DNA of 64,000 nucleotides from Hyphomonadaceae bacterium (GTDB lineage Bacteria; Pseudomonadota; Alphaproteobacteria; Caulobacterales; Hyphomonadaceae), in NCBI GenBank assembly GCA_024743315.1, contig JANSWU010000004.1:323106-387105 (forward strand). Direction: 5' to 3'. Of the stretch, positions 9,922 through 17,918 are shown one piece after another. The notes beneath the pieces were generated by a model. The model searched no databases and was not told where the DNA came from. It worked only from the letters and a program-made list of their open reading frames with translations. Position 1 is the first letter of the stretch. Every line of letters starts with the position of its first letter. Made by a program: the position numbers and the translations under genes.

Positions 9922-10812
9922 ATGATCCCTCGCTCAGTTGCGATCCCTAAAAACTGGACCACATTCAATTTCGCGAGTTTCTTCTCTGCATTTTTGTACC
10001 CAGCCCTTGGTCTTGCAACCCTGATTACCGTGATCATTCTTGGCCTGGCGATTTCAGGACTGACCCTGCGCTGGTATTATCTGCCACTTGGGATCGGGGT
10101 TGTCGCGCTCTCTATCTTCGTCTGCAATGCTGGCATTGGGCCTTTGCACCGGATCATGCAGCACAAAGCGGGTGAGCTGCGCGCGCCGGGACAGGTCGTG
10201 ACCATGATCAATCTGATGATCGCCATGCAAGGCAATGTGCGCGACTGGGTGAATTATCACAGCCAGCATCATCGCTTTTCAGACAAGCCTGGTGATCCGC
10301 ACAATCCATTTGAGTCCAAACGCTGGGCCTGGGTCGGATGGATCCTTTGGCGTGACGCGAAAGACATGATGCGCCCGATGCCGATGTGGCTTAAAAAGCA
10401 ACCGATCGTGGTCTGGATGGACGGCTTCTACAATTCCTTGTCCCTGGTCTTACACCTCTTTGTACCGGCCGTGATCTATCTGATTGTCTGGGCCGCTGGG
10501 GGCTCGCTGGTGCTTACCGCGATCTGTCATGCCTGCTTCGTGATTGGTCGGGCGATCCAGTTCCACGCGACAGTTTACGGCATCAATGTGCTTGGCCATT
10601 TGCCAACGCCAAAATGGGCCGACCATCTGATTGGCCTCCTGACCGGCGGCGAGGCGTTCCATGATCACCATCATGAGGAACCGCAAAGCGCCCTGCACCG
10701 CCCGCGCAAAGGCCTGTGGAACCGTATAGTCGATTATAATGGCACCATTCTTTTGGTGTATGAAAAGCTTGGTTGGGTAAAGAACCTGAAGATTGCTCCA
10801 CAATTTGCTTAG
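9922..10812 (+). CDS. Membrane fatty-acid desaturase (delta-9-like)
   Basis: His boxes HRIMQH, HSQHH and HDHHH; SDKPGDPHNP; hydrophobic segments. Confidence 0.85.
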   Translation: MIPRSVAIPKNWTTFNFASFFSAFLYPALGLATLITVIILGLAISGLTLRWYYLPLGIGVVALSIFVCNAGIGPLHRIMQHKAGELRAPGQVVTMINLMIAMQGNVRDWVNYHSQHHRFSDKPGDPHNPFESKRWAWVGWILWRDAKDMMRPMPMWLKKQPIVVWMDGFYNSLSLVLHLFVPAVIYLIVWAAGGSLVLTAICHACFVIGRAIQFHATVYGINVLGHLPTPKWADHLIGLLTGGEAFHDHHHEEPQSALHRPRKGLWNRIVDYNGTILLVYEKLGWVKNLKIAPQFA

Positions 10813-10849
10813 GCGCGATATCGGCTGAGAATTTTTTTAAGCATCTGAT

Positions 10850-10882
10850 GCGGCCCCTCATCCATTGAGGGGCCGCTTTTTT
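10850..10882 (+). terminator. Rho-independent terminator
   Basis: gcggcccctca-tccat-tgaggggccgc followed by T6. Confidence 0.9.
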
Positions 10883-11072
10883 ATGGATTCTGGGGAAAGT
10901 GGTTCAATCCGGAACAGGTTTGCAAACAGGCTCCTAATGCTGGTGTCTGGGTTGTGTTCAATTTTCGAGAAAATTCTCCAATCCACCTGAAACCGACTTT
11001 AATTCGGGCCCTGTATAAAAGCGTCATGGCTGCAGAAGCGGCTTGTTGAACCCTTAGAAAGTGGTTGGAAAA

Positions 11073-11339
11073 ATGACGCAGAATGCTCAATCTCTAAGCG
11101 TGCGGGGGCCCGATGGGCGCCCGCTCACACTTGCAGACTTGCCGAAGCCAGGGATCACCCGCTGGGTAACCCGTCGCAAGGCTGAAGTCGTTGCCGCCGT
11201 ATCCGGTGGCCTCCTGTCAGAGGAAGAAGCGCTTCGCCGCTATGATCTCAGCGAAGAAGAATTCTCTGGCTGGCGTTCCCTTTATTCGAAGCATGGCCGC
11301 AAAGGCCTGCGCACGACGCGCGTTCAGCAATACCGCTAA
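11073..11339 (+). CDS. sciP: CtrA inhibitor SciP (DUF1153)
   Basis: GPDGRPLTLADLP...RWVTRRKAEVVAAVSGGLLSEEEALRRYDLSEEEF...GLRTTRVQQYR. Confidence 0.95.
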   Translation: MTQNAQSLSVRGPDGRPLTLADLPKPGITRWVTRRKAEVVAAVSGGLLSEEEALRRYDLSEEEFSGWRSLYSKHGRKGLRTTRVQQYR

Positions 11340-11385
11340 ACGCGCCGGGGACACAACTGATCCTGCAATGAGCTGAGGCTCATTG

Positions 11386-11401
11386 TTAAAGCGCCGTTTA
11401 C
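11386..11401 (+). promoter_or_regulatory. CtrA box upstream of mini-fliF
   Basis: TTAA-agcgccg-TTTAC, one mismatch to TTAA-N7-TTAAC; directly preceded by the inverted repeat caatgagc/gctcattg. Confidence 0.6.
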
Positions 11402-11461
11402 GACGCCGCTCGTATAGACTTACGAGAATGCCCGCTTCTGCGTCGGGCCAAGGTGTTGTGA

Positions 11462-12103
11462 ATGAGCGCGAAAGACCGAACGCCGACCTTGCGTCTCCTG
11501 GCCCTCGCCGCTTTTCTTTTAGCGGCGGGGCTTTTGGCTTTGCGCGCATATGACCTGTTTGGCACCGTGAAGTCGGAGCCGGTCGGCAGTTCCGTCGAAC
11601 GTCAGCTCACTTATTTGCTGGAGCCGATCACTGGCACGGACCGGGTACGCGTATCGGTCACGGGTCGGGCCCCAAAAACTGTTCTGATCATGGTGGATGG
11701 CGACCTGGCCAGTGATTTGCGTCCGCTGCGAACCCGCGTCGAAAATATTTTGCAGGCATCGATCGGCTTTGATGTCGAAGCTGACAAATTGACATTATCG
11801 CAATTTCCATTCGCGCGCGGCGTGGGTGGATCGCTCACCCCGTTCCAGATCGCCGAGCTAACCGGACTGAGCCTGCTATCGCTAACCCTGCTCGTTATCC
11901 TGTTGAGTTCGCAAAGGCAGCCTGAGATAATGACCGCCAGCCCGCACCGGACCGCCATTCAGCCGCCGCCGCGCCCGCAACATCCTGCAATTCCGATGAC
12001 AACCGAACCCAATGACGTTCGCGAAGCCGCCGCCCTCGCAGAAGCCAACCCTCAAGAAACAGCCAATCTCGTTCGCGGTTGGTTGTCTTATGCGGAGGAT
12101 TAG
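11462..12103 (+). CDS. Short FliF-like M-ring protein (213 aa)
   Basis: N-terminal TM, RBM3-like LLEPITGTDRVRVSV...VLIMVDG...ASIGFD...KLTLSQFPF, second TM, C-terminal NPQETANLVRGWL helix; abuts fliG. Confidence 0.75.
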   Translation: MSAKDRTPTLRLLALAAFLLAAGLLALRAYDLFGTVKSEPVGSSVERQLTYLLEPITGTDRVRVSVTGRAPKTVLIMVDGDLASDLRPLRTRVENILQASIGFDVEADKLTLSQFPFARGVGGSLTPFQIAELTGLSLLSLTLLVILLSSQRQPEIMTASPHRTAIQPPPRPQHPAIPMTTEPNDVREAAALAEANPQETANLVRGWLSYAED

Positions 12104-13033
12104 ATGAGCCTGCCTGCCCTCGCCACGGCCGCGCCGCAAGCATCCGGCTTGACCCGCAGCGCCTTATTGATGCGCGCGCTCGGCGCCAAAGCCGCGGCCG
12201 TATGGTCGCAGCTGACCCCGGAAGAAGCTGAACGATTGAGTCTGGCCATGCAATCCCTGCCAGAAGATGGCGCAGCCGAACAAGACGCGGTTTCAACCTA
12301 TGTCCGGTCCATGCGCACCCCGGTCGTGCAAGCGCTTCCGAAACCAGACTCGGTCTGGGAGGATTTGTCTCAATGTGATGGGGCGTTCCTCGCCGGAATA
12401 ATCCAAAATGAAAGCCCGCAAGTTATTGCGTTGACCCTATCCCGCCTATCGCCACAAGCGGCGGCTGATACTGTTCGCGCCTTACCGCGATCGCTGGCAA
12501 CGGAATCCTTGAAGCGGCTGCTCAATCTGGGGGCAATCCACCCAGCTGCATTGAAAGCGCTTTCACTTTCCCTATCACAGCAACTCGATCGACGTCAGTC
12601 CCGCGATCTCAGCGGCGGACATGAACATGTTGCCCGGATTTTCGATCAGCTCGACAGCACATCTGAGAGCAAGCTCCTGTCCGCGCTGGATAGCGCCGAA
12701 CCTGGATCAGGCGAAAAGATCCGCGCCTTGATGTTCACCTTTGAAGACCTCGCGAAGCTCGATCCGGCCAGCCTGCAGACCATTCTCGTGAATGTTGATC
12801 GGGCCGTCCTCACGATTGCCCTGAAGGGCGCCGGTGAGGTCATCACTGAAGCCTTCTTCAAGAACATCACCCAACGCGCCGCAGCGCTGTTGCGGGAAGA
12901 AATCGCCAATGTCGGTCCGGTCCGGCGCAGCGAGATTGATGCCGCCCGCGCCGACGTGTTGGCGGTCGCCCGGGCCCTGGTGAAACGCGGCGATTTGTTG
13001 CCTCAGAGCGCTGATGATGAGCTGATCGAATGA
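12104..13033 (+). CDS. fliG: Flagellar motor switch protein FliG
   Basis: ESPQVIALTLSRL (EHPQ-like), GGHEHVARIF, MFTFEDL, QRAAALLREEIANVGPVRRSEID. Confidence 0.9.
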   Translation: MSLPALATAAPQASGLTRSALLMRALGAKAAAVWSQLTPEEAERLSLAMQSLPEDGAAEQDAVSTYVRSMRTPVVQALPKPDSVWEDLSQCDGAFLAGIIQNESPQVIALTLSRLSPQAAADTVRALPRSLATESLKRLLNLGAIHPAALKALSLSLSQQLDRRQSRDLSGGHEHVARIFDQLDSTSESKLLSALDSAEPGSGEKIRALMFTFEDLAKLDPASLQTILVNVDRAVLTIALKGAGEVITEAFFKNITQRAAALLREEIANVGPVRRSEIDAARADVLAVARALVKRGDLLPQSADDELIE

Positions 13034-13389
13034 AGCGACTTATCCAAACCATAGAACCATTTCCATTTGAAAGCGATTTCAGCGCCCCGGCCCCCGCCGC
13101 TCGTGACACTGTCACCTTGCAAACCTCGGAACTTGCACTTTTGCTTTCAGACGCCCAGGCCAGCGGCGCTGCGATTGCACGCAATGATACGCTCGCCGAA
13201 CAGGCAGACCGGCTTGAGAAAACCTCATCTGAGCTCAAATCGGTATTGGCGAGCATAGTTGAGCTGGCTACCTGTCTTGAGAAAGCCGCAATCGATGAAC
13301 AAGACCGCGCGGAGGCCCTCGAGCGCGTGCGCCGCCTCGCCGCAGTTGTGATCGAGGGGCAAGCTGACTTATTTTCGGAACAAAGATGA
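13030..13389 (+). CDS. Truncated FliH/FlbE-like protein (119 aa)
   Basis: Position between fliG and fliN, N-terminal FPFESDF aromatic motif, helical body, ATGA overlap; the C-terminal FliH domain is absent. Confidence 0.55.
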   Translation: MKRLIQTIEPFPFESDFSAPAPAARDTVTLQTSELALLLSDAQASGAAIARNDTLAEQADRLEKTSSELKSVLASIVELATCLEKAAIDEQDRAEALERVRRLAAVVIEGQADLFSEQR

Positions 13390-13455
13390 TTTGTTCATTT
13401 CTCGGCAACCATTCACAGCCACGTTAATACCTTAAACCAAAGAGACACTCGCCTC

Positions 13456-13722
13456 ATGACCGCAAATCGCGCGCTCGAAAACTCGCTCATGGACGCTCCC
13501 GTTCGGGTCGATGTCGTCCTGGGCGAAGCGCGCATACCGATGGAAGAGCTGATGTCGCTAAGTGAAGGCGAGATTGTCGAGCTTGAAAACAGCACGACCG
13601 ACCTGGTCGATATCTATGTTTCGGATCGGTTGATGGCCCGCGGCCGTCTGGTTGTCGCAGATGGCCAGCTCGGCGTGACCCTGAGCGAAATCATCGACTC
13701 CAGAACACAGCCTTTCGCGTAA
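13456..13722 (+). CDS. fliN: FliN / SpoA-domain protein
   Basis: LMDAPVRVDVVLGEARIPMEELMSLSEGEIVEL...VDIYVSDRLMARGRLVVADGQLGVTLSEI. Confidence 0.88.
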   Translation: MTANRALENSLMDAPVRVDVVLGEARIPMEELMSLSEGEIVELENSTTDLVDIYVSDRLMARGRLVVADGQLGVTLSEIIDSRTQPFA

Positions 13723-13784
13723 AACGCGAGTTTCATTGCACATTTTCCCTCTGTGTGATCATTATCACGAGGGAGGGCGTTCTC

Positions 13785-15116
13785 ATGAAAATAATAAAGA
13801 CACTCATTGTCGGCTTCAGCACCATTATTCTGGGGGCTGCAATGGCGCATTCAGCAAACGCAGAAGAAAAACGGTTAGCCTTATTAATGGCCAATCAGGA
13901 TTATCCGAGCGAAGTTGGCAAACTTTCCAATACGCATCGCGACGCCGCCATGATCGAGGCGTCACTCAAGACCCTTGGCTATCAGATCACCAAAGTGCTG
14001 GATGCCGATTCCGATGGCATGGATCAAGCGATCACCAATTTTGAGCGCGCCATTGAAGCCGAGGCCGCTGACGGCGATGATGTCGTTGTCTTTGTTTACG
14101 CCTCGATGCATGGGGCCACAGCGCAAGTTGACGGGCGCGCCCGCAACTTTCTATTGCCCGCCAAGGAATCGATCAGCACGCCGGGGCAGCTCATTCGCAA
14201 GGGCATTCGGGTCGACCACTTGATTCAGGGCCTCTCTGCAAGCAGCGCTAAAGCCGTGGTTCTCGTCTCAGACGCCTGTCGGAACGAGCTGGAACAGTCT
14301 TTTTCCAAAAGCACAACCAAAGGCTTTGTCCCGGTCCGCGCACAGTCTGGCGTCGTGGTCGCCTATGCAACAGCGCCAGGATCAACCACGCCGGATGACG
14401 GTTTGTTCGCACGGGTGCTCGCGGAAGAATTGCTGGAAGAAGAGCGCAAGGCCAGTTTCGCCATGCTTGAAACCATTGAAGAGGTCGCCAAGCAGCGTGC
14501 GATTGATGGCCAGCCCTATATGACGTCCGGCGGATTGCCGGACTGGTTCTGCTTCAACAAATGCCCATCCGATCAATTGCTGACAGAGAATGAAGCGATC
14601 GCGCTCGGCCAGGCGCTATCATCAAATAGCATCGCCAAGCTGCAGGAATTTCGCACAAGATTCCCGCAAAGCAATTTCCTCGACCTGATCGACACGCGGA
14701 TTGCCAATGTTGGTCCCCGCAATTTGAAACTCACAGTCAAGCGGATCGAATGTTTGCTGGCCGATGATGAAGGTCCCTTCAATACGGTCGATATGCGTAA
14801 GATGTTTGTCAGCGCAAAGCTGACCTCGAGTGTCCAGCCGATGATCCTTTATGATTGGAAGAATGGCGAAAAAGGCTTCAGCACGGGCGACAAGCTTAAC
14901 GTCAACCAGTCGATCGAATTTCTGTATGATCCACGGGTCGACGAGACCATCGCCTTGACCGCAGAAATGATCGATGGCGACCCGGTCGGCGATGATGAGC
15001 GCGGCGGGTTCAAAGACCGAGCGTTTCCAATTGACCGCATCGGCCAGGAACAGACCTTCAATATCAGCTCGCGCGATTTCAGCTTTAATATTGTGTATCA
15101 ATTCGACGAAGGCTGA
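13785..15116 (+). CDS. Secreted caspase-family (peptidase C14) protein with extra C-terminal domain
   Basis: Signal peptide ending ANA-E, RLALLMANQDY, dyad motifs YASMHG and SDACRN, VAYATAPG; C-terminal beta-rich domain. Confidence 0.85.
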   Translation: MKIIKTLIVGFSTIILGAAMAHSANAEEKRLALLMANQDYPSEVGKLSNTHRDAAMIEASLKTLGYQITKVLDADSDGMDQAITNFERAIEAEAADGDDVVVFVYASMHGATAQVDGRARNFLLPAKESISTPGQLIRKGIRVDHLIQGLSASSAKAVVLVSDACRNELEQSFSKSTTKGFVPVRAQSGVVVAYATAPGSTTPDDGLFARVLAEELLEEERKASFAMLETIEEVAKQRAIDGQPYMTSGGLPDWFCFNKCPSDQLLTENEAIALGQALSSNSIAKLQEFRTRFPQSNFLDLIDTRIANVGPRNLKLTVKRIECLLADDEGPFNTVDMRKMFVSAKLTSSVQPMILYDWKNGEKGFSTGDKLNVNQSIEFLYDPRVDETIALTAEMIDGDPVGDDERGGFKDRAFPIDRIGQEQTFNISSRDFSFNIVYQFDEG

Positions 15117-15196
15117 TTCCCGCGCCGTACCGCCCACGCCGCAGATGTAAACTTGTCCACATTCACCAGAAGCTGTGAAAAACTAACAAATCAACA

Positions 15197-15211
15197 GATT
15201 CTGTTAACCAT
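15197..15211 (+). promoter_or_regulatory. CtrA half-site TTAACCAT plus GANTC upstream of flhF-like gene
   Basis: gattc 15197-15201, TTAACCAT 15204-15211. Confidence 0.55.
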
Positions 15212-15251
15212 TTCGCCTCAACACTCGATTCCATAAAGTGGAGTGTGCTGT

Positions 15252-16256
15252 ATGCGAATGAAGATGTTTGCCGCTGAGTCCCTTGAGGCAGCAAAGGCAT
15301 TAATCTTCGCGGAAATGGGCGATGATGCGGTCATCCTGTCCGAACGCGAAGTGCCAGGCGGCGTGGAAGTGCGAGCAGCGACGGATAAAATGGGCGGCGG
15401 AATGGTGCCCAGTGAGTCGCGAATTCTGACCCGACTGGGCGCCAATCCGGCGCCGCGTCTGGTCGAAAGCCCGGTTCGCAATCGCGTTCGCGACTCCCTC
15501 TTGTGGCATGGCGCACCGCAAAGGTTTGCCGACCGGATTGCGGATGCTGGACTGACAGGCGGGTTTGAAGGCAGCGAACCGAGTGCGGCTTTGGCCGCCG
15601 GTCTTGAATCCACCATTTCTTGTGACCCAATCCCACCGGTGCCACATCGCAATATCGTTTTGGTCGGCGCCCCAGGACACGGCCGCACCGCAACCGCTGC
15701 CAAGCTCACACGCCGCGCCGCTGTTGCCAAAGCGGAAGTCTTGCCGGTCGCCGCCGACCTCGACTTGACCGCCGGCGGCGCGCAACTCGCGGCCTATCTT
15801 GAAAAAGAGCAGGACCAGATCCGTTCGGTAACCAATCCGGATGATCTGTTCGCCCTACTCAAAACCATCAAAGCGGATAATAAACGCTGCATCATCGACA
15901 TGCCGGCGATTATTCCGTTTGACCAGGAAGACATGGCGAGCCTGCAAGACCTGCTTGCGGTGATTGATGCCGAGCCGGTGCTTGTGATCAGCGCCGAAGG
16001 GCATCCTGAAGATCTCAATGAGGCCGCAAGAGCCTTTGCAAGATGTGGAGTGCGGAGAGCGATCGTGACCAAGCTGGACGTGACCCGCCGAAGGGGCGGT
16101 ATCGTTTCAGCGCTCATATCAGCTAAAATCGCATTCTCGCACCTCGCCATCACCCCATTCATTGGTGGTGGCCTGGTGCCAGCGACCCCATCAAGACTGG
16201 CCCAATTGCTGACAGAAGACGCACCGGCCCATGTCGCACTGAAAGGAGCCGCGTAA
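15252..16256 (+). CDS. flhF: FlhF-like SRP-family GTPase with degenerate motifs
   Basis: N-terminal MRMKMFAAESLEAAKALIFAEMGDDAVILS, GAPGHGRT P-loop variant, TKLD G4. Confidence 0.82.
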   Translation: MRMKMFAAESLEAAKALIFAEMGDDAVILSEREVPGGVEVRAATDKMGGGMVPSESRILTRLGANPAPRLVESPVRNRVRDSLLWHGAPQRFADRIADAGLTGGFEGSEPSAALAAGLESTISCDPIPPVPHRNIVLVGAPGHGRTATAAKLTRRAAVAKAEVLPVAADLDLTAGGAQLAAYLEKEQDQIRSVTNPDDLFALLKTIKADNKRCIIDMPAIIPFDQEDMASLQDLLAVIDAEPVLVISAEGHPEDLNEAARAFARCGVRRAIVTKLDVTRRRGGIVSALISAKIAFSHLAITPFIGGGLVPATPSRLAQLLTEDAPAHVALKGAA

Positions 16257-17092
16257 TGAGCTTCCTACTTCCGAAATCACAAGAGCGACCGAACCAGCGC
16301 CCACCGCGCCGGGTCGAACCTGCTTCGATCATTGCGGTCGGCTCCGGCAAAGGCGGCGTTGGCAAGACATTCATGTCGATCACCCTGGCCAGCGCCATGG
16401 CACAAGCCGGACGACGCACGCTGCTGGTCGATGGTGACCTTGGACTCGCTAATGTCGATGTACAGCTTGGCATCGCGCCAGAAACCGATCTTGCGGCCGT
16501 CATCGCAGGATGGGTTGAGCTCGAAGACGCGGTAACCCCGGTCGATGGCGGCTCTGCAAATGGCGGCTTTGACGTCCTGCCCGGTCGATCTGGATCCGGT
16601 GCTTTGGCCGAACTCTCGTCTGAAGAGGTGGCGCGGCTGGCTGCCGGTCTCTCCGCGCTCGCCTTGCAATATGATCAGGTCATTCTGGATCTTGGTGCCG
16701 GGATCGAAGCCAATTGCATGCGTCTGGCGCGCGCCGCAGACAAAGTGCTGATGGTCATCACCGACGAGCCGACCTCGATGACTGATGCTTATGCATTCAT
16801 CAAAGTTTTGAAGGGCTATGCCCCGAGCGTAGAACAAACCATTGCGATCAATCAGTGCGAAACCCGGTCCGCCGGGCAGAACACCTATTCTGCGGTGGCC
16901 CAAGCGTGTCAGACCTTTTTAGGCTTCCGGCCGCACCTGGCGGGCACAATTATTCGCGACGATGCCGTTCGCGAAGCCATTCGCAGCCAGAGAACGTTAA
17001 TTTCAACAAACGCGTCTTCACAGCCCGTGCAGGACGTTATCGCCATTGCTCACACGCTTCTCGGGCGGACCGGGCAAGACCTGCATTCTTAA
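16256..17092 (+). CDS. flhG: FlhG/FleN (MinD/ParA-family) ATPase
   Basis: SGKGGVGKT, VDGDLGLANVD, DLGAGI, EPTSMTDAYAFIK; coupled to flhF. Confidence 0.88.
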   Translation: MSFLLPKSQERPNQRPPRRVEPASIIAVGSGKGGVGKTFMSITLASAMAQAGRRTLLVDGDLGLANVDVQLGIAPETDLAAVIAGWVELEDAVTPVDGGSANGGFDVLPGRSGSGALAELSSEEVARLAAGLSALALQYDQVILDLGAGIEANCMRLARAADKVLMVITDEPTSMTDAYAFIKVLKGYAPSVEQTIAINQCETRSAGQNTYSAVAQACQTFLGFRPHLAGTIIRDDAVREAIRSQRTLISTNASSQPVQDVIAIAHTLLGRTGQDLHS

Positions 17093-17216: not shown

Positions 17217-17918
17217 ATGAGAGTCTTACTAATTGAAGATGATAATGCGGTCGCTCGCAGTATCGAACTGATGCTGAAGGCGGCAGGCTTTAACATCTAC
17301 ACAACTGACCTTGGAGAAGAAGGCGTCGACCTGGGAAAGGTCTATGAGTATGACATCATCATCCTCGACCTCTCACTGCCCGACATTTCTGGCTATGACG
17401 TGCTCAAGCAGCTGCGCATGGCACGGGTCAACACCCCGGTCCTGATCCTGTCAGGCAACCCGGACATTGAGGCGAAAGTGAAAACGCTCGGCTATGGCGC
17501 CGACGATTATCTCACCAAGCCGTTCAACAAGGACGAGCTGATCGCCCGTATCACGGCGATTGTCCGTCGCTCCAAAGGCCACGCTGAGAGCGTCATCCGC
17601 ACCGGCGAGATCCTGGTCAACTTGGATGCCAAGACCGTCGAAGTCGACGAAGAGCGCGTCCACCTGACCGGCAAAGAATACCAAATGTTCGAGCTGCTTT
17701 CCTTGCGCAAAGGCACAACGCTGACCAAGGAAATGTTCCTCAACCACCTATATGGCGGCATGGACGAGCCTGAGCTTAAAATCATCGACGTGTTCATCTG
17801 TAAGCTGCGCAAGAAATTGCAGCATGCGACAGGCGGTGAGCATTATATCGAAACCGTTTGGGGCCGCGGCTATGTTCTGCGCGACCCGAAACCGAAAAAG
17901 GAAGCGGTCGCCGCCTAA
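17217..17918 (+). CDS. ctrA: Cell-cycle master response regulator CtrA
   Basis: MRVLLIEDD...[12 protein letters not shown]...[34 protein letters not shown]...[14 protein letters not shown]; C-terminal VAA degron-like end. Confidence 0.98.

Follow-up and report, generated by a model that had tools for sequence, protein, structure and literature searches.

A trimmed second set of flagellar switch genes between sciP and ctrA is retained in Hyphomonadaceae genomes without export, rod and hook genes

We analysed a 64,000-nucleotide stretch of DNA from a marine Hyphomonadaceae bacterium (GenBank assembly GCA_024743315.1, contig JANSWU010000004.1, positions 323,106 to 387,105 of the forward strand; hereafter the window). 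Its positions 11,462 to 17,092, between sciP and ctrA, encode altered and in part strongly shortened counterparts of FliF, FliG, FliH, FliN, FlhF and FlhG (here mini-FliF, FliG', FliH', FliN', FlhF' and FlhG'; Table 1). This module is a paralogous second set beside a complete flagellar island, it is accompanied in all module genomes by an orphan stator pair, and it is intact in four related genomes that have no export, rod or hook genes. We read it as an autonomous, export-less rotor/stator-like polar complex, with a probability of about one half, and infer its assembly, localisation and contacts from the genes. A preliminary description of the window, made from the DNA letters, had proposed a repurposed polar scaffold, signalling hub or filament-less rotor under cell-cycle control. 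This interpretation is partly supported: the intactness of the genes, their one-sided trimming, the separate flagellar set and the persistence without a flagellum all stand, whereas the importance given to a change in one FliG motif was overstated and the orphan stator had been missed.

The strain encodes a full flagellum outside the module. A complete flagellar island, as the preliminary description had advised looking for, lies 70-105 kb away from the module on the same contig (C7:412-445 kb) and in a Pfam scan comprises FlhB, FliR, FlhA, FliQ, FliI, flagellin, FlbT, FlgD, FliK, FlgA, FlgG/F, MotA, MotB, FlgE, FlgK/L, FlgI, FliP and a very divergent 366-amino-acid (aa) FliG. It also has its own FliF (516-549 aa, with a FliG-binding tail), its own FliN and a FliM-like protein. 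Counted over the whole genome, there are two FliG genes, and FliN' and the island FliN are two of four genes with a SpoA domain. The export gate (FlhA/B, FliPQR), the ATPase FliI, the rod, the hook and the filament are encoded in the island only, and genome searches confirmed that flhA, fliI and fliM-like genes lie outside the window. Since the island has its own FliF, FliG, FliN and FlhA, the module is a paralogous second set, and the idea that it supplies the only switch genes of a divergent flagellum is rejected. The island FliG (C7:437602-438702, minus strand) is itself unusual: it scores 44 bits with FliG_C, falls below the cut-off with FliG_M, shares 19% identity with FliG' and has a branch in the FliG tree that measures ~9 substitutions per site, which makes it more atypical than the supposedly relic FliG'.

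The module is also found where this machinery is missing. The family sample of 61 genomes includes four with the module but without FlhA (G449, G464, G664 and G594; three genera, each at least 99% complete). They have no Flg_bbr_C rod/hook genes, of which flagellated controls have five each, and neither an island MotA nor an island MotB. All four keep sciP-mini-FliF-FliG'-FliH'-FliN' intact and translationally coupled, together with an intact FlhF'-FlhG'-ctrA unit in which FlhF' has the GRT form of its P-loop; all four keep MotB2, and three keep MotA2 intact. G464 and G664, both aflagellate, are sister taxa (support 100/99 in the FliG tree). The ratio of nonsynonymous to synonymous substitutions (dN/dS, or omega) between aflagellates and their nearest flagellated relatives is unreliable, the synonymous distance (dS) being saturated (above 1), and we therefore used the aflagellate sister pair and branch lengths instead. 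Between G464 and G664, rotor-gene dS is 0.4-1.2 (~0.9 for FliG') and omega is 0.31, 0.18, 0.17 and 0.20 for mini-FliF, FliG', FliH' and FliN', compared with 0.09 for FlhF', 0.04 for FlhG' and 0.10 for a neighbouring control gene. Moreover, the aflagellate tip branches of FliG' are no longer than those of flagellated sisters (1.43 in G594 versus 1.46 in G569; 0.84 in G449 versus 0.47-0.88). That the module persists in four genomes devoid of export, rod and hook genes argues for a function distinct from flagellum construction.

What these genomes do retain is a stator. Orthologs of the orphan proteins MotA2 and MotB2 are present in 52/52 module genomes and in 0/9 ancestral-type genomes of the family, and in the four aflagellates they are the only stator genes left. 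We regard this co-occurrence as the strongest support for the rotor version of the earlier interpretation. The two genes are linked neither to each other nor to any flagellar gene. MotB2 keeps the plug region and the channel Asp (AYADFLTAL in 11 MotB2 sequences), and conserved features of MotA2 are its Pro residues, ALPALG, YGLVGP and a charged R..E cytoplasmic loop. MotB2 adjoins a gene of the 3-hydroxyisobutyrate-dehydrogenase family, as does HNE_0894 of Hyphomonas neptunium. A further orphan, FliM2, has an N-terminal LSAAEIEALL that resembles the CheY-binding motif of FliM and is 52-77% identical across the clade; it is a candidate FliM partner of the module.

The surface of FliG' that would meet such a stator is conserved. 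Across 69 FliG' sequences, aflagellates included, the stator-contact residues are near-invariant: in the torque helix, K241 is kept in 68/69, R258 in 69/69, an acidic residue (E/D) at E265 in 58/69 and at E266 in 69/69, R274 (R/K) in 67/69 and R275 (R) in 67/69. From an alignment to the known motif, we take the FliG' positions to match K264, R281, D288, D289 and R297 of Escherichia coli FliG, which contact MotA. The torque-helix charges named in the preliminary description, which lie in QRAAALLREEIANVGPVRR at residues 257-275, are thus a family-wide feature, and so is the MFTF hinge motif (M210 in 69/69, the other three residues in 68/69). The same description had stressed a change of EHPQ to ESPQ. 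NESPQ is indeed present at residues 102-106, but the change is a mild one: the ancestral-type FliG has EYPQ, and the third position is S in 50/69, H in 12/69, N in 3/69 and R in 4/69 of the sequences. The FliM-binding E[H/S]PQ motif is kept in 65/69 and is degenerate (ER-type) in G449, G464, G664 and G544.

Judged by gene order, the locus is a remnant of the family's ancestral class II flagellar locus. Three genera of the family without mini-FliF (g310-g312) carry sciP-fliF-fliG-fliH-fliN-flbD-flhA-flhF-flhG, then ~4 kb, then ctrA, with products of 558 aa (FliF), 352 aa (FliG), 217 aa (FliH/FlbE), 113 aa (FliN), 461 aa (FlbD), 710 aa (FlhA), 329 aa (FlhF, with the P-loop GPPGSGKTS) and 282 aa (FlhG). 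With the Caulobacter-type locus (sciP, fliF-fliG-flbE/fliH-fliN-flbD-flhA) the module shares the upstream sciP and the fliF-fliG-fliH-fliN order, and with the Hyphomonadaceae form also flhF-flhG before ctrA and a CtrA-box-like site ahead of the fliF slot. It differs from the class II locus in that flbD and flhA are deleted, exactly at a variable slot, and in that the flagellum is encoded elsewhere. Furthermore, FliF and FliH carry internal deletions (213 versus 558 aa and 119 versus 217 aa), FliG is ~43 residues shorter (N-domain and linker), FliN lacks its N-terminal extension, and the FlhF P-loop reads GRT instead of GKT. As proposed in the preliminary description, this trimming is one-sided: the membrane anchor, the RBM3 core, the FliG-binding tail, the torque-helix charges, the FliH N-terminal motif and the FliN SpoA domain are kept, and the losses comprise RBM1/2 and the collar of FliF, the C-terminal domain of FliH, and the genes flbD and flhA. 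The FlhA proteins of the two groups of genera differ, with PF00771 scores of ~857 bits for the ancestral type and ~690 bits in all genera with the module, and a mutual identity of 39-41%; the working flagellum of the module lineage is therefore of a different type. As the genome comparison shows, Henriciella, Hyphomonas and allies build their flagellum from a different, self-sufficient gene island.

The trimmed form is confined to this lineage in our samples. Among 301 genomes of the order, mini-FliF occurs in 52/52 genomes of four genera of the family and is absent from three other genera of the family and from all other families, which have full-length FliF only. In an even sample of 400 genomes of the class, we found outside the family full-length FliFs and three short C-terminal fragments without the synteny of the module. 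More than 30 assemblies of Henriciella and other Hyphomonadaceae have the order sciP-mini-FliF-FliG'-FliH'-FliN'-(variable 0.1-4 kb)-FlhF'-FlhG'-ctrA intact, and a metagenomic contig encodes a mini-FliF of 28% identity in the same eight-gene synteny. A profile search of 1.84 billion representative proteins returned 177 relatives of mini-FliF, of which ~130 clusters are 200-240 aa long; full-length FliFs stand at the weak end of this list and are matched in their C-terminal parts (1e-5 to 1e-13).

For mini-FliF itself, a structure model, fold comparison and profile agree on the anatomy that had been proposed from the sequence, namely two transmembrane (TM) helices, an RBM3-like core and a C-terminal FliG-binding helix. 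The AlphaFold2 (AF2) model, built from an alignment of 28 homologs, has a mean predicted local distance difference test score (pLDDT) of 78. In it, TM helices at residues 9-33 and 127-148 flank an alpha-beta-beta-alpha-beta domain (44-114), and the second of them is followed by a disordered Pro-rich linker and two final helices (185-212). Its best PDB matches in Foldseek are the RBM3 of the Salmonella FliF MS ring, PrgK and EscJ, at E-values of ~2e-3 that provide modest fold evidence. The family profile matched FliF chains alone in the PDB, in collinear pieces: residues 39-69 align with 239-269 and residues 86-211 with 405-558 of Salmonella FliF, at a weak E-value of 0.014. This alignment skips the intervening parts of FliF, and RBM1, RBM2 and the beta-collar are therefore missing. 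The likeness to Salmonella FliF (PDB 6scn/6sd1/7cg7; PF01514 and PF08345) comprises the two TM helices, the RBM3-type core and the C-terminal FliG-binding helix motif (…LVRGWLSYAED versus …VIRQWMSND). In contrast, RBM1/RBM2, which surround the export gate, and the beta-collar, which surrounds the rod, are lacking, and mini-FliF stays below all Pfam thresholds: it has no Pfam or NCBIfam match at E <= 0.01, including the FliF models PF01514 (YscJ_FliF) and PF08345 (YscJ_FliF_C). Of the canonical series TM1-RBM1-RBM2-RBM3 with beta-collar-TM2-FliG-binding tail, it thus has TM1, a collar-less RBM3 core, TM2 and the tail only. Its position after sciP and before fliG is the slot of the 558-aa fliF in genera g310-g312 and of fliF in other alphaproteobacterial families. 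On these grounds, mini-FliF is homologous to and derived from FliF, yet is not a canonical member. A short FliF can also occur in another context: assembly GCA_965320695.1, an unrelated assembly of 51% GC content, encodes a 569-aa protein in which a short FliF (YscJ_FliF_C only) is naturally fused to a complete FliG (contig CBDNWH010000029.1, locus positions 10001-11710), with no sciP and no other flagellar gene within 12 kb.

The other switch proteins are recognisable to different degrees. FliG' matches FliG_C (PF01706, 114 bits), FliG_M (PF14841, 61 bits) and FliG_N (PF14842, 40 bits), all above the Pfam cut-offs; the M and C domains are complete, and the N-domain match spans only positions 3-53 of the 104 in the model. 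Its TIGR00207 score of 166 bits is under the equivalog cut-off of 227. In the FliG tree, FliG' forms a distinct clade (support 99/98) on a long stem among ordinary alphaproteobacterial FliGs and is not resolved as sister of the family's ancestral-type FliG (polytomy, with long-branch attraction to one divergent row), so that its orthology rests on synteny. FliH' occupies the slot between fliG and fliN that in ancestral loci belongs to fliH/flbE. It has no PF02108 match and no Pfam match at all; the 217-aa slot protein of G409, one of three ancestral ones of 207-217 aa, has a weak PF02108 match in the region deleted from FliH'. Alignment to these proteins of sister genera bears out the view that the N-terminal aromatic motif was kept and the C-terminal domain lost: FliH' retains PFxFxxDF, common to the mini and ancestral forms, a coiled coil and a QxDLF tail, without the C-terminal globular domain. 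In Salmonella, the N-terminal aromatic motif of FliH binds FliN. FliN' reaches a TIGR02480 score just under the cut-off of 84, and the flagellar island has its own FliN.

FlhF' and FlhG' combine unusual motifs with very strong conservation. The TIGR03499 score of FlhF' is 71 bits against a cut-off of 174, and its nucleotide-binding motifs read GAPGHGRT (G1, with Lys changed to Arg), DMPA (G3) and TKLD (G4), so that the canonical GxxGxGKT/DTAG set is not intact. All of 29/29 FlhF' sequences from module genomes have GxxGxGRT, D(M/L)P(A/G) and TKLD, and three ancestral-type FlhFs have GKT; judged from these sequences, the Lys-to-Arg change arose with the module lineage. By synteny, FlhF' is orthologous to the GKT-type FlhF that follows flhA in sister genera. 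It is the sole FlhF of the genome, as there is one FlhF per genome throughout the family; it is nearly as conserved as CtrA and survives flagellum loss. FlhG' has an intact deviant Walker A motif (GSGKGGVGKT) and scores of 85-94 bits with MinD models, under the equivalog cut-offs; by eye, no DQAxxLR-type N-terminal activator motif was seen in it or in the ancestral-type FlhG. Its gene always lies between flhF' and ctrA, aflagellate genomes included. The P-loop change of FlhF', taken with its conservation, fits a nucleotide-cycle-impaired landmark or scaffold. Alternatively, the two genes may be constrained as part of an flhF'-flhG'-ctrA transcription unit.

The module also appears to be tied to the cell cycle. 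The preliminary description had named CtrA-type sites upstream. No perfect CtrA box (TTAA-N7-TTAA) occurs within the whole window, which contains one-mismatch sites only; what stands is one phylogenetically conserved near-consensus box ahead of mini-fliF, TTAAAGCGCCGTTTA (TTAA-N7-TTTA), which is one mismatch from the consensus and is predicted to be CtrA-box-like. The core around it, GTTAAAGCGCCGTTTACG, is identical in nearly all of ~30 Henriciella loci (one single change), with variable flanks; distant relatives have TTAA-N7-TT(T/A)A at this site, and G464/G664 carry the perfect TTAAACCTGCCTTAA. A second element, CTAACAAATCAACAGATTCTGTTAACC, contains GANTC and TTAAC and is nearly invariant in the Henriciella loci, with CTAAC-N-TTGTTAACC in distant loci; it suggests that flhF'-flhG'-ctrA may share a cell-cycle promoter. 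The GANTC, a site of CcrM methylation, stands beside TTAAC upstream of flhF'.

Data on H. neptunium, whose locus tags we assigned by annotation and synteny (Leicht et al. 2020, PMC7200025), extend this picture to a relative. In this species the motility island HNE_0239-0276 has its own fliF, fliN, fliG, motB and motA, and sciP (HNE_1390) is followed by HNE_1391 (hypothetical), HNE_1392 ("putative FliG") and HNE_1393 (hypothetical). The last three have wild-type expression values of 101, 33 and 95 reads per kilobase per million (RPKM) and are up 1.5-2.1-fold in a divJ mutant (PMC7200025). The FlhF homolog HNE_0942 and "MotR" HNE_0943 (FlhG') precede ctrA (HNE_0944), and an 8.9-fold CtrA peak in chromatin immunoprecipitation (ChIP) lies upstream of HNE_0942 (PMC7200025); the position of CTAACAAATCAACAGATTCTGTTAACC coincides with this ChIP-seq peak, between HNE_0941 and HNE_0942 (PMC7200025 S6 Data). 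The orphan motB HNE_0894 belongs to the direct CtrA regulon, with a ChIP peak, a log2 fold change of -1.7 on CckA depletion and an RPKM of 81 (PMC7200025), and HNE_0504, which corresponds to FliM2, shows a CtrA ChIP peak as well as increased levels in divJ and pleC mutants (PMC7200025). Together, these data show that the module is expressed in a relative and linked to the CtrA circuit. The single candidate RNA run for the window strain yielded only short 90-95% fragments from relatives.

If the complex exists as we envisage it, mini-FliF would oligomerise via its single RBM3-type core into a small inner-membrane ring without a channel partner, and its C-terminal helices would dock FliG'. FliN', tethered to FliH' via the PFxF motif and perhaps joined by the orphan FliM2, would add a C-ring-like layer. 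MotA2/MotB2 units would engage the conserved torque-helix charges of FliG', and this dedicated proton-driven stator would turn or load the mini-FliF ring. FlhF', probably a pseudo-GTPase, and FlhG' would place and count the complex at the pole, the CtrA/SciP/DivJ cell-cycle circuit would time its expression, and the output may be rotation, force or signalling in polar development. In this complete form, that is, an autonomous filament-less and export-less motor of Henriciella, Hyphomonas and allies, with a mini-FliF ring, a FliG'/FliN'/FliH' layer, MotA2/MotB2 drive, FlhF'/FlhG' placement, CtrA/SciP timing and an output for polar development or signalling rather than swimming, the proposal is a tentative one.

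Several observations weigh against an autonomous complex. The aflagellate calls are calls of gene absence from draft assemblies, and with the flagellar genes in one island, a single recent deletion or a binning gap could remove all of them at once. Omega in the aflagellate pair is 2-6 times that of flagellated Henriciella. In G664, the MotA2 gene (C1:1007700-1009300) is interrupted near its middle by an in-frame TAG, possibly the mark of a pseudogene or a sequencing error; the same genome has an intact MotB2 and an intact rotor operon. The E[H/S]PQ motif is degenerate in three of the aflagellates, and also in the flagellated relative G544. An AF2 model of the natural read-through fusion mini-FliF-TAG-FliG', aimed at the docking of the mini-FliF tail, had low global confidence (pLDDT 67; predicted TM score, pTM, 0.26). 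None of HNE_1391-1393 has a CtrA peak in the H. neptunium ChIP table (PMC7200025). Finally, MotA2/MotB2 could belong to the real flagellum and, as in dual-stator bacteria, provide it with a second stator.

The last point leads to the strongest competitor, in which the trimmed proteins work in or next to the basal body built by the island, for example by forming an extra ring, offering an assembly platform or modulating the switch, with FlhF'/FlhG' placing the flagellum and MotA2/MotB2 serving as its second stator; on this view, aflagellates would retain the module because they lost the island recently or because it has some minor side role. We consider this rather unlikely. It would account for the single FlhF of every family genome, which in ancestral-type genomes follows flhA as in ordinary polar flagellates, and for the fact that 48/52 module genomes are flagellated; dual stators on one motor are known in other bacteria; and the higher omega of the aflagellate pair and the MotA2 stop codon of one aflagellate point the same way. 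However, an accessory role is difficult to reconcile with an island that has its own FliF with a FliG-binding tail, FliG, FliN, FliM-like protein and MotAB, the more so as comparable islands suffice in Rhizobiales and Rhodobacterales. Mini-FliF has neither RBM1/2 nor a collar to contact the export gate or rod. Moreover, every rotor gene is intact in aflagellates of at least three independent lineages, and the low omega of FliG' at a dS of ~0.9 in the sister pair as well as the ordinary length of aflagellate FliG' tips also speak against an accessory role. Expression in H. neptunium speaks on both sides: HNE_1391-1393 rise together with island flagellar genes in the divJ mutant (PMC7200025 S10 Data), but the orphan motB falls on CckA depletion, opposite to most island genes, which rise (PMC7200025 S1 and S7 Data).

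A static device is another possibility, and one that we hold to be unlikely. In Caulobacter, assembly of the MS ring and switch gates class III/IV expression, and in Campylobacter it activates FlgSR. A polar scaffold or assembly checkpoint without stator drive could be a membrane platform that is read by the CtrA/SciP/DivJ circuit or recruits polar factors, with MotA2/MotB2 unrelated to it. The physical linkage to sciP and ctrA across the family, the conserved CtrA-like elements and an FlhF' that has lost its P-loop Lys while being among the most conserved proteins, as would befit a landmark or scaffold, are all in line with this, and G664, with its MotA2 stop, is a case of an intact operon in the absence of MotA2. 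For Campylobacter, a checkpoint role of FliF/FliG has been documented (PMC3760246). A static scaffold, however, leaves unexplained why exactly the stator-contact residues of FliG' are near-invariant, aflagellates included, and why the module co-occurs with MotA2/MotB2 in 52/52 versus 0/9 genomes; furthermore, flbD, which encodes the regulator that reads the checkpoint in Caulobacter, is the very gene that was deleted.

The evolution of the genes indicates strong purifying selection on the module. The dN/dS values (Table 1) were calculated by the Nei-Gojobori method (NG86) for 21 Henriciella pairs with FliG' dS of 0.1-1.0, and no frameshifts or stops were found in module genes in more than 60 genomes of four genera. 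That the module consists of non-functional leftovers of the replaced ancestral locus, not yet lost, is extremely improbable and rejected. In its favour are the shortened proteins, the long stem of the FliG' clade and the missing Pfam matches of mini-FliF and FliH'; against it are this intactness, conserved lengths (the ~130 clusters of 200-240 aa), rotor-gene dN/dS of 0.03-0.08, translational coupling with an in-frame stop-ATG in 29/31 loci and expression in H. neptunium; the preliminary description had likewise held that the genes are not decaying.

An autonomous rotor/stator-like complex would differ from the systems that resemble it most. Second FliG or stator sets are known from Borrelia (FliG1/FliG2), Pseudomonas (MotAB/MotCD), Shewanella (PomAB/MotAB) and Cereibacter sphaeroides (Fla1/Fla2). 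The module is like them in having a second FliG and a second MotA/MotB pair beside primary motor genes; their extra parts, in contrast, serve a complete flagellum, whereas the module has its own membrane anchor and no export, rod or hook partner, and outlives the flagellum in aflagellates. Reduced flagellar sets in non-motile bacteria include the basal bodies of Buchnera and the chlamydial orphans FliI/FlhA/FliF. These too are subsets kept without a filament, but they keep export and lose rotor and stator, and the module is their mirror image. Thus, the reduced flagellar systems known so far retain secretion and dispense with the motor; here it is the export gate, rod, hook and filament that are missing, and strong selection acts on the rotor, switch, stator and placement parts. 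No account of the module emerged from full-text literature searches by locus tag and topic; in the H. neptunium study the genes appear only under hypothetical or putative labels. The co-occurrence with MotA2/MotB2 and the persistence of the module in aflagellate genomes are new findings of this study. The module is a flagellar-motor derivative, and a new kind of machine if it is an autonomous device. If assembled, it would represent a minimal MS-ring/C-ring/stator system of natural origin, in which one could learn what is achieved by RBM3 alone, half of a FliG N-domain and a truncated FliH; it would also exemplify the exaptation of a rotary motor for a task other than motility and add a new component to the alphaproteobacterial CtrA cell-cycle circuit; as an autonomous motor, it would be a non-flagellar descendant of the flagellar rotor that survives flagellum loss. 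The question is open to direct tests in H. neptunium, a genetically tractable carrier of the module for which transcriptome and ChIP data exist.

Table 1. Features of the sciP-ctrA locus and of associated orphan genes. Positions refer to the window unless a contig (C) is given; dN/dS is from Henriciella pairs, and identity is to the window protein across the genus.
Feature	Position	Strand	Evidence or remark	dN/dS	Identity
sciP, CtrA inhibitor, left border	11061-11339	+	NF051866 CtrAInhibSciP 126.6 bits; PF06627	0.038	
CtrA-box-like element TTAAAGCGCCGTTTA	11386-11400	+	62-76 nt upstream of mini-fliF start		
mini-FliF, 213 aa	11462-12103	+	AF2 fold, profile, synteny with full-length fliF	0.079	51-74%
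FliG', 309 aa, rotor/switch paralog	12104-13033	+	FliG_N, FliG_M, FliG_C matches	0.082	59-77%
FliH', 119 aa, FliH/FlbE slot	13030-13389	+	alignment to 207-217-aa sister-genus slot proteins	0.056	58-77%
FliN', 88 aa, SpoA domain only	13456-13722	+	PF01052 (FliMN_C) 77.4 bits; TIGR02480 79.6 bits	0.032	81-95%
caspase-family (Peptidase_C14) gene, 453 aa, outside module	13755-15116	+	PF00656 74 bits		
conserved element CTAACAAATCAACAGATTCTGTTAACC	15183-15209	+	43-69 nt before flhF' ATG		
FlhF', 334 aa from conserved MRMK start	15252-16256	+	SRP-type GTPase, PF00448 55 bits	0.015	87-97%
FlhG'/MinD-type ATPase	16256-17092	+	MinD-family matches	0.016	94-99%
ctrA, right border	17217-17918	+	NF045991 414 bits		99-100%
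MotA2, 292 aa	C4:253360-254238	+	PF20560 and PF01618 above cut-off		
MotB2, 229 aa	C6:135472-136161	+	PF13677 and PF00691 above cut-off		
FliM2, orphan 333-aa FliM/FliN-family protein	C2:288587-289588	-	SpoA domain 42 bits		

The layout of the locus is compact. The open reading frame (ORF) map and the Pfam and NCBIfam scans recovered all the intact, tightly coupled ORFs of the preliminary description, with the junctions it had reported: an in-frame TAG-ATG at 12101-12106 and overlaps of 4 nt (ATGA, at 13030) and 1 nt (TAATG, at 16254-16258). For FlhF', the ORF finder begins at a GTG at 15243, upstream of the conserved MRMK start that we adopted. The sciP gene lies directly upstream of the fliF slot in all related and ancestral-type loci, and the mini-fliF stop lies immediately before the fliG' ATG and in frame with it in the 29/31 related loci mentioned above. 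This stop codon differs by species (TAG, TAA or TGA), and a single read-through would yield a FliF-FliG fusion.

All the genes named for this span in the preliminary description are present, but its title omitted the 453-aa caspase-family gene that lies among them. This gene is strain-specific, and it occupies the variable slot in which ancestral-type loci have flbD-flhA. As a part of the module it is rejected, since no related locus has a caspase gene in this slot, which is 0.1-4 kb long there. The encoded protein looks secreted and has five paralogs elsewhere in the genome (two on C4 and one each on C6, C7 and C8), with 25-30% identity.

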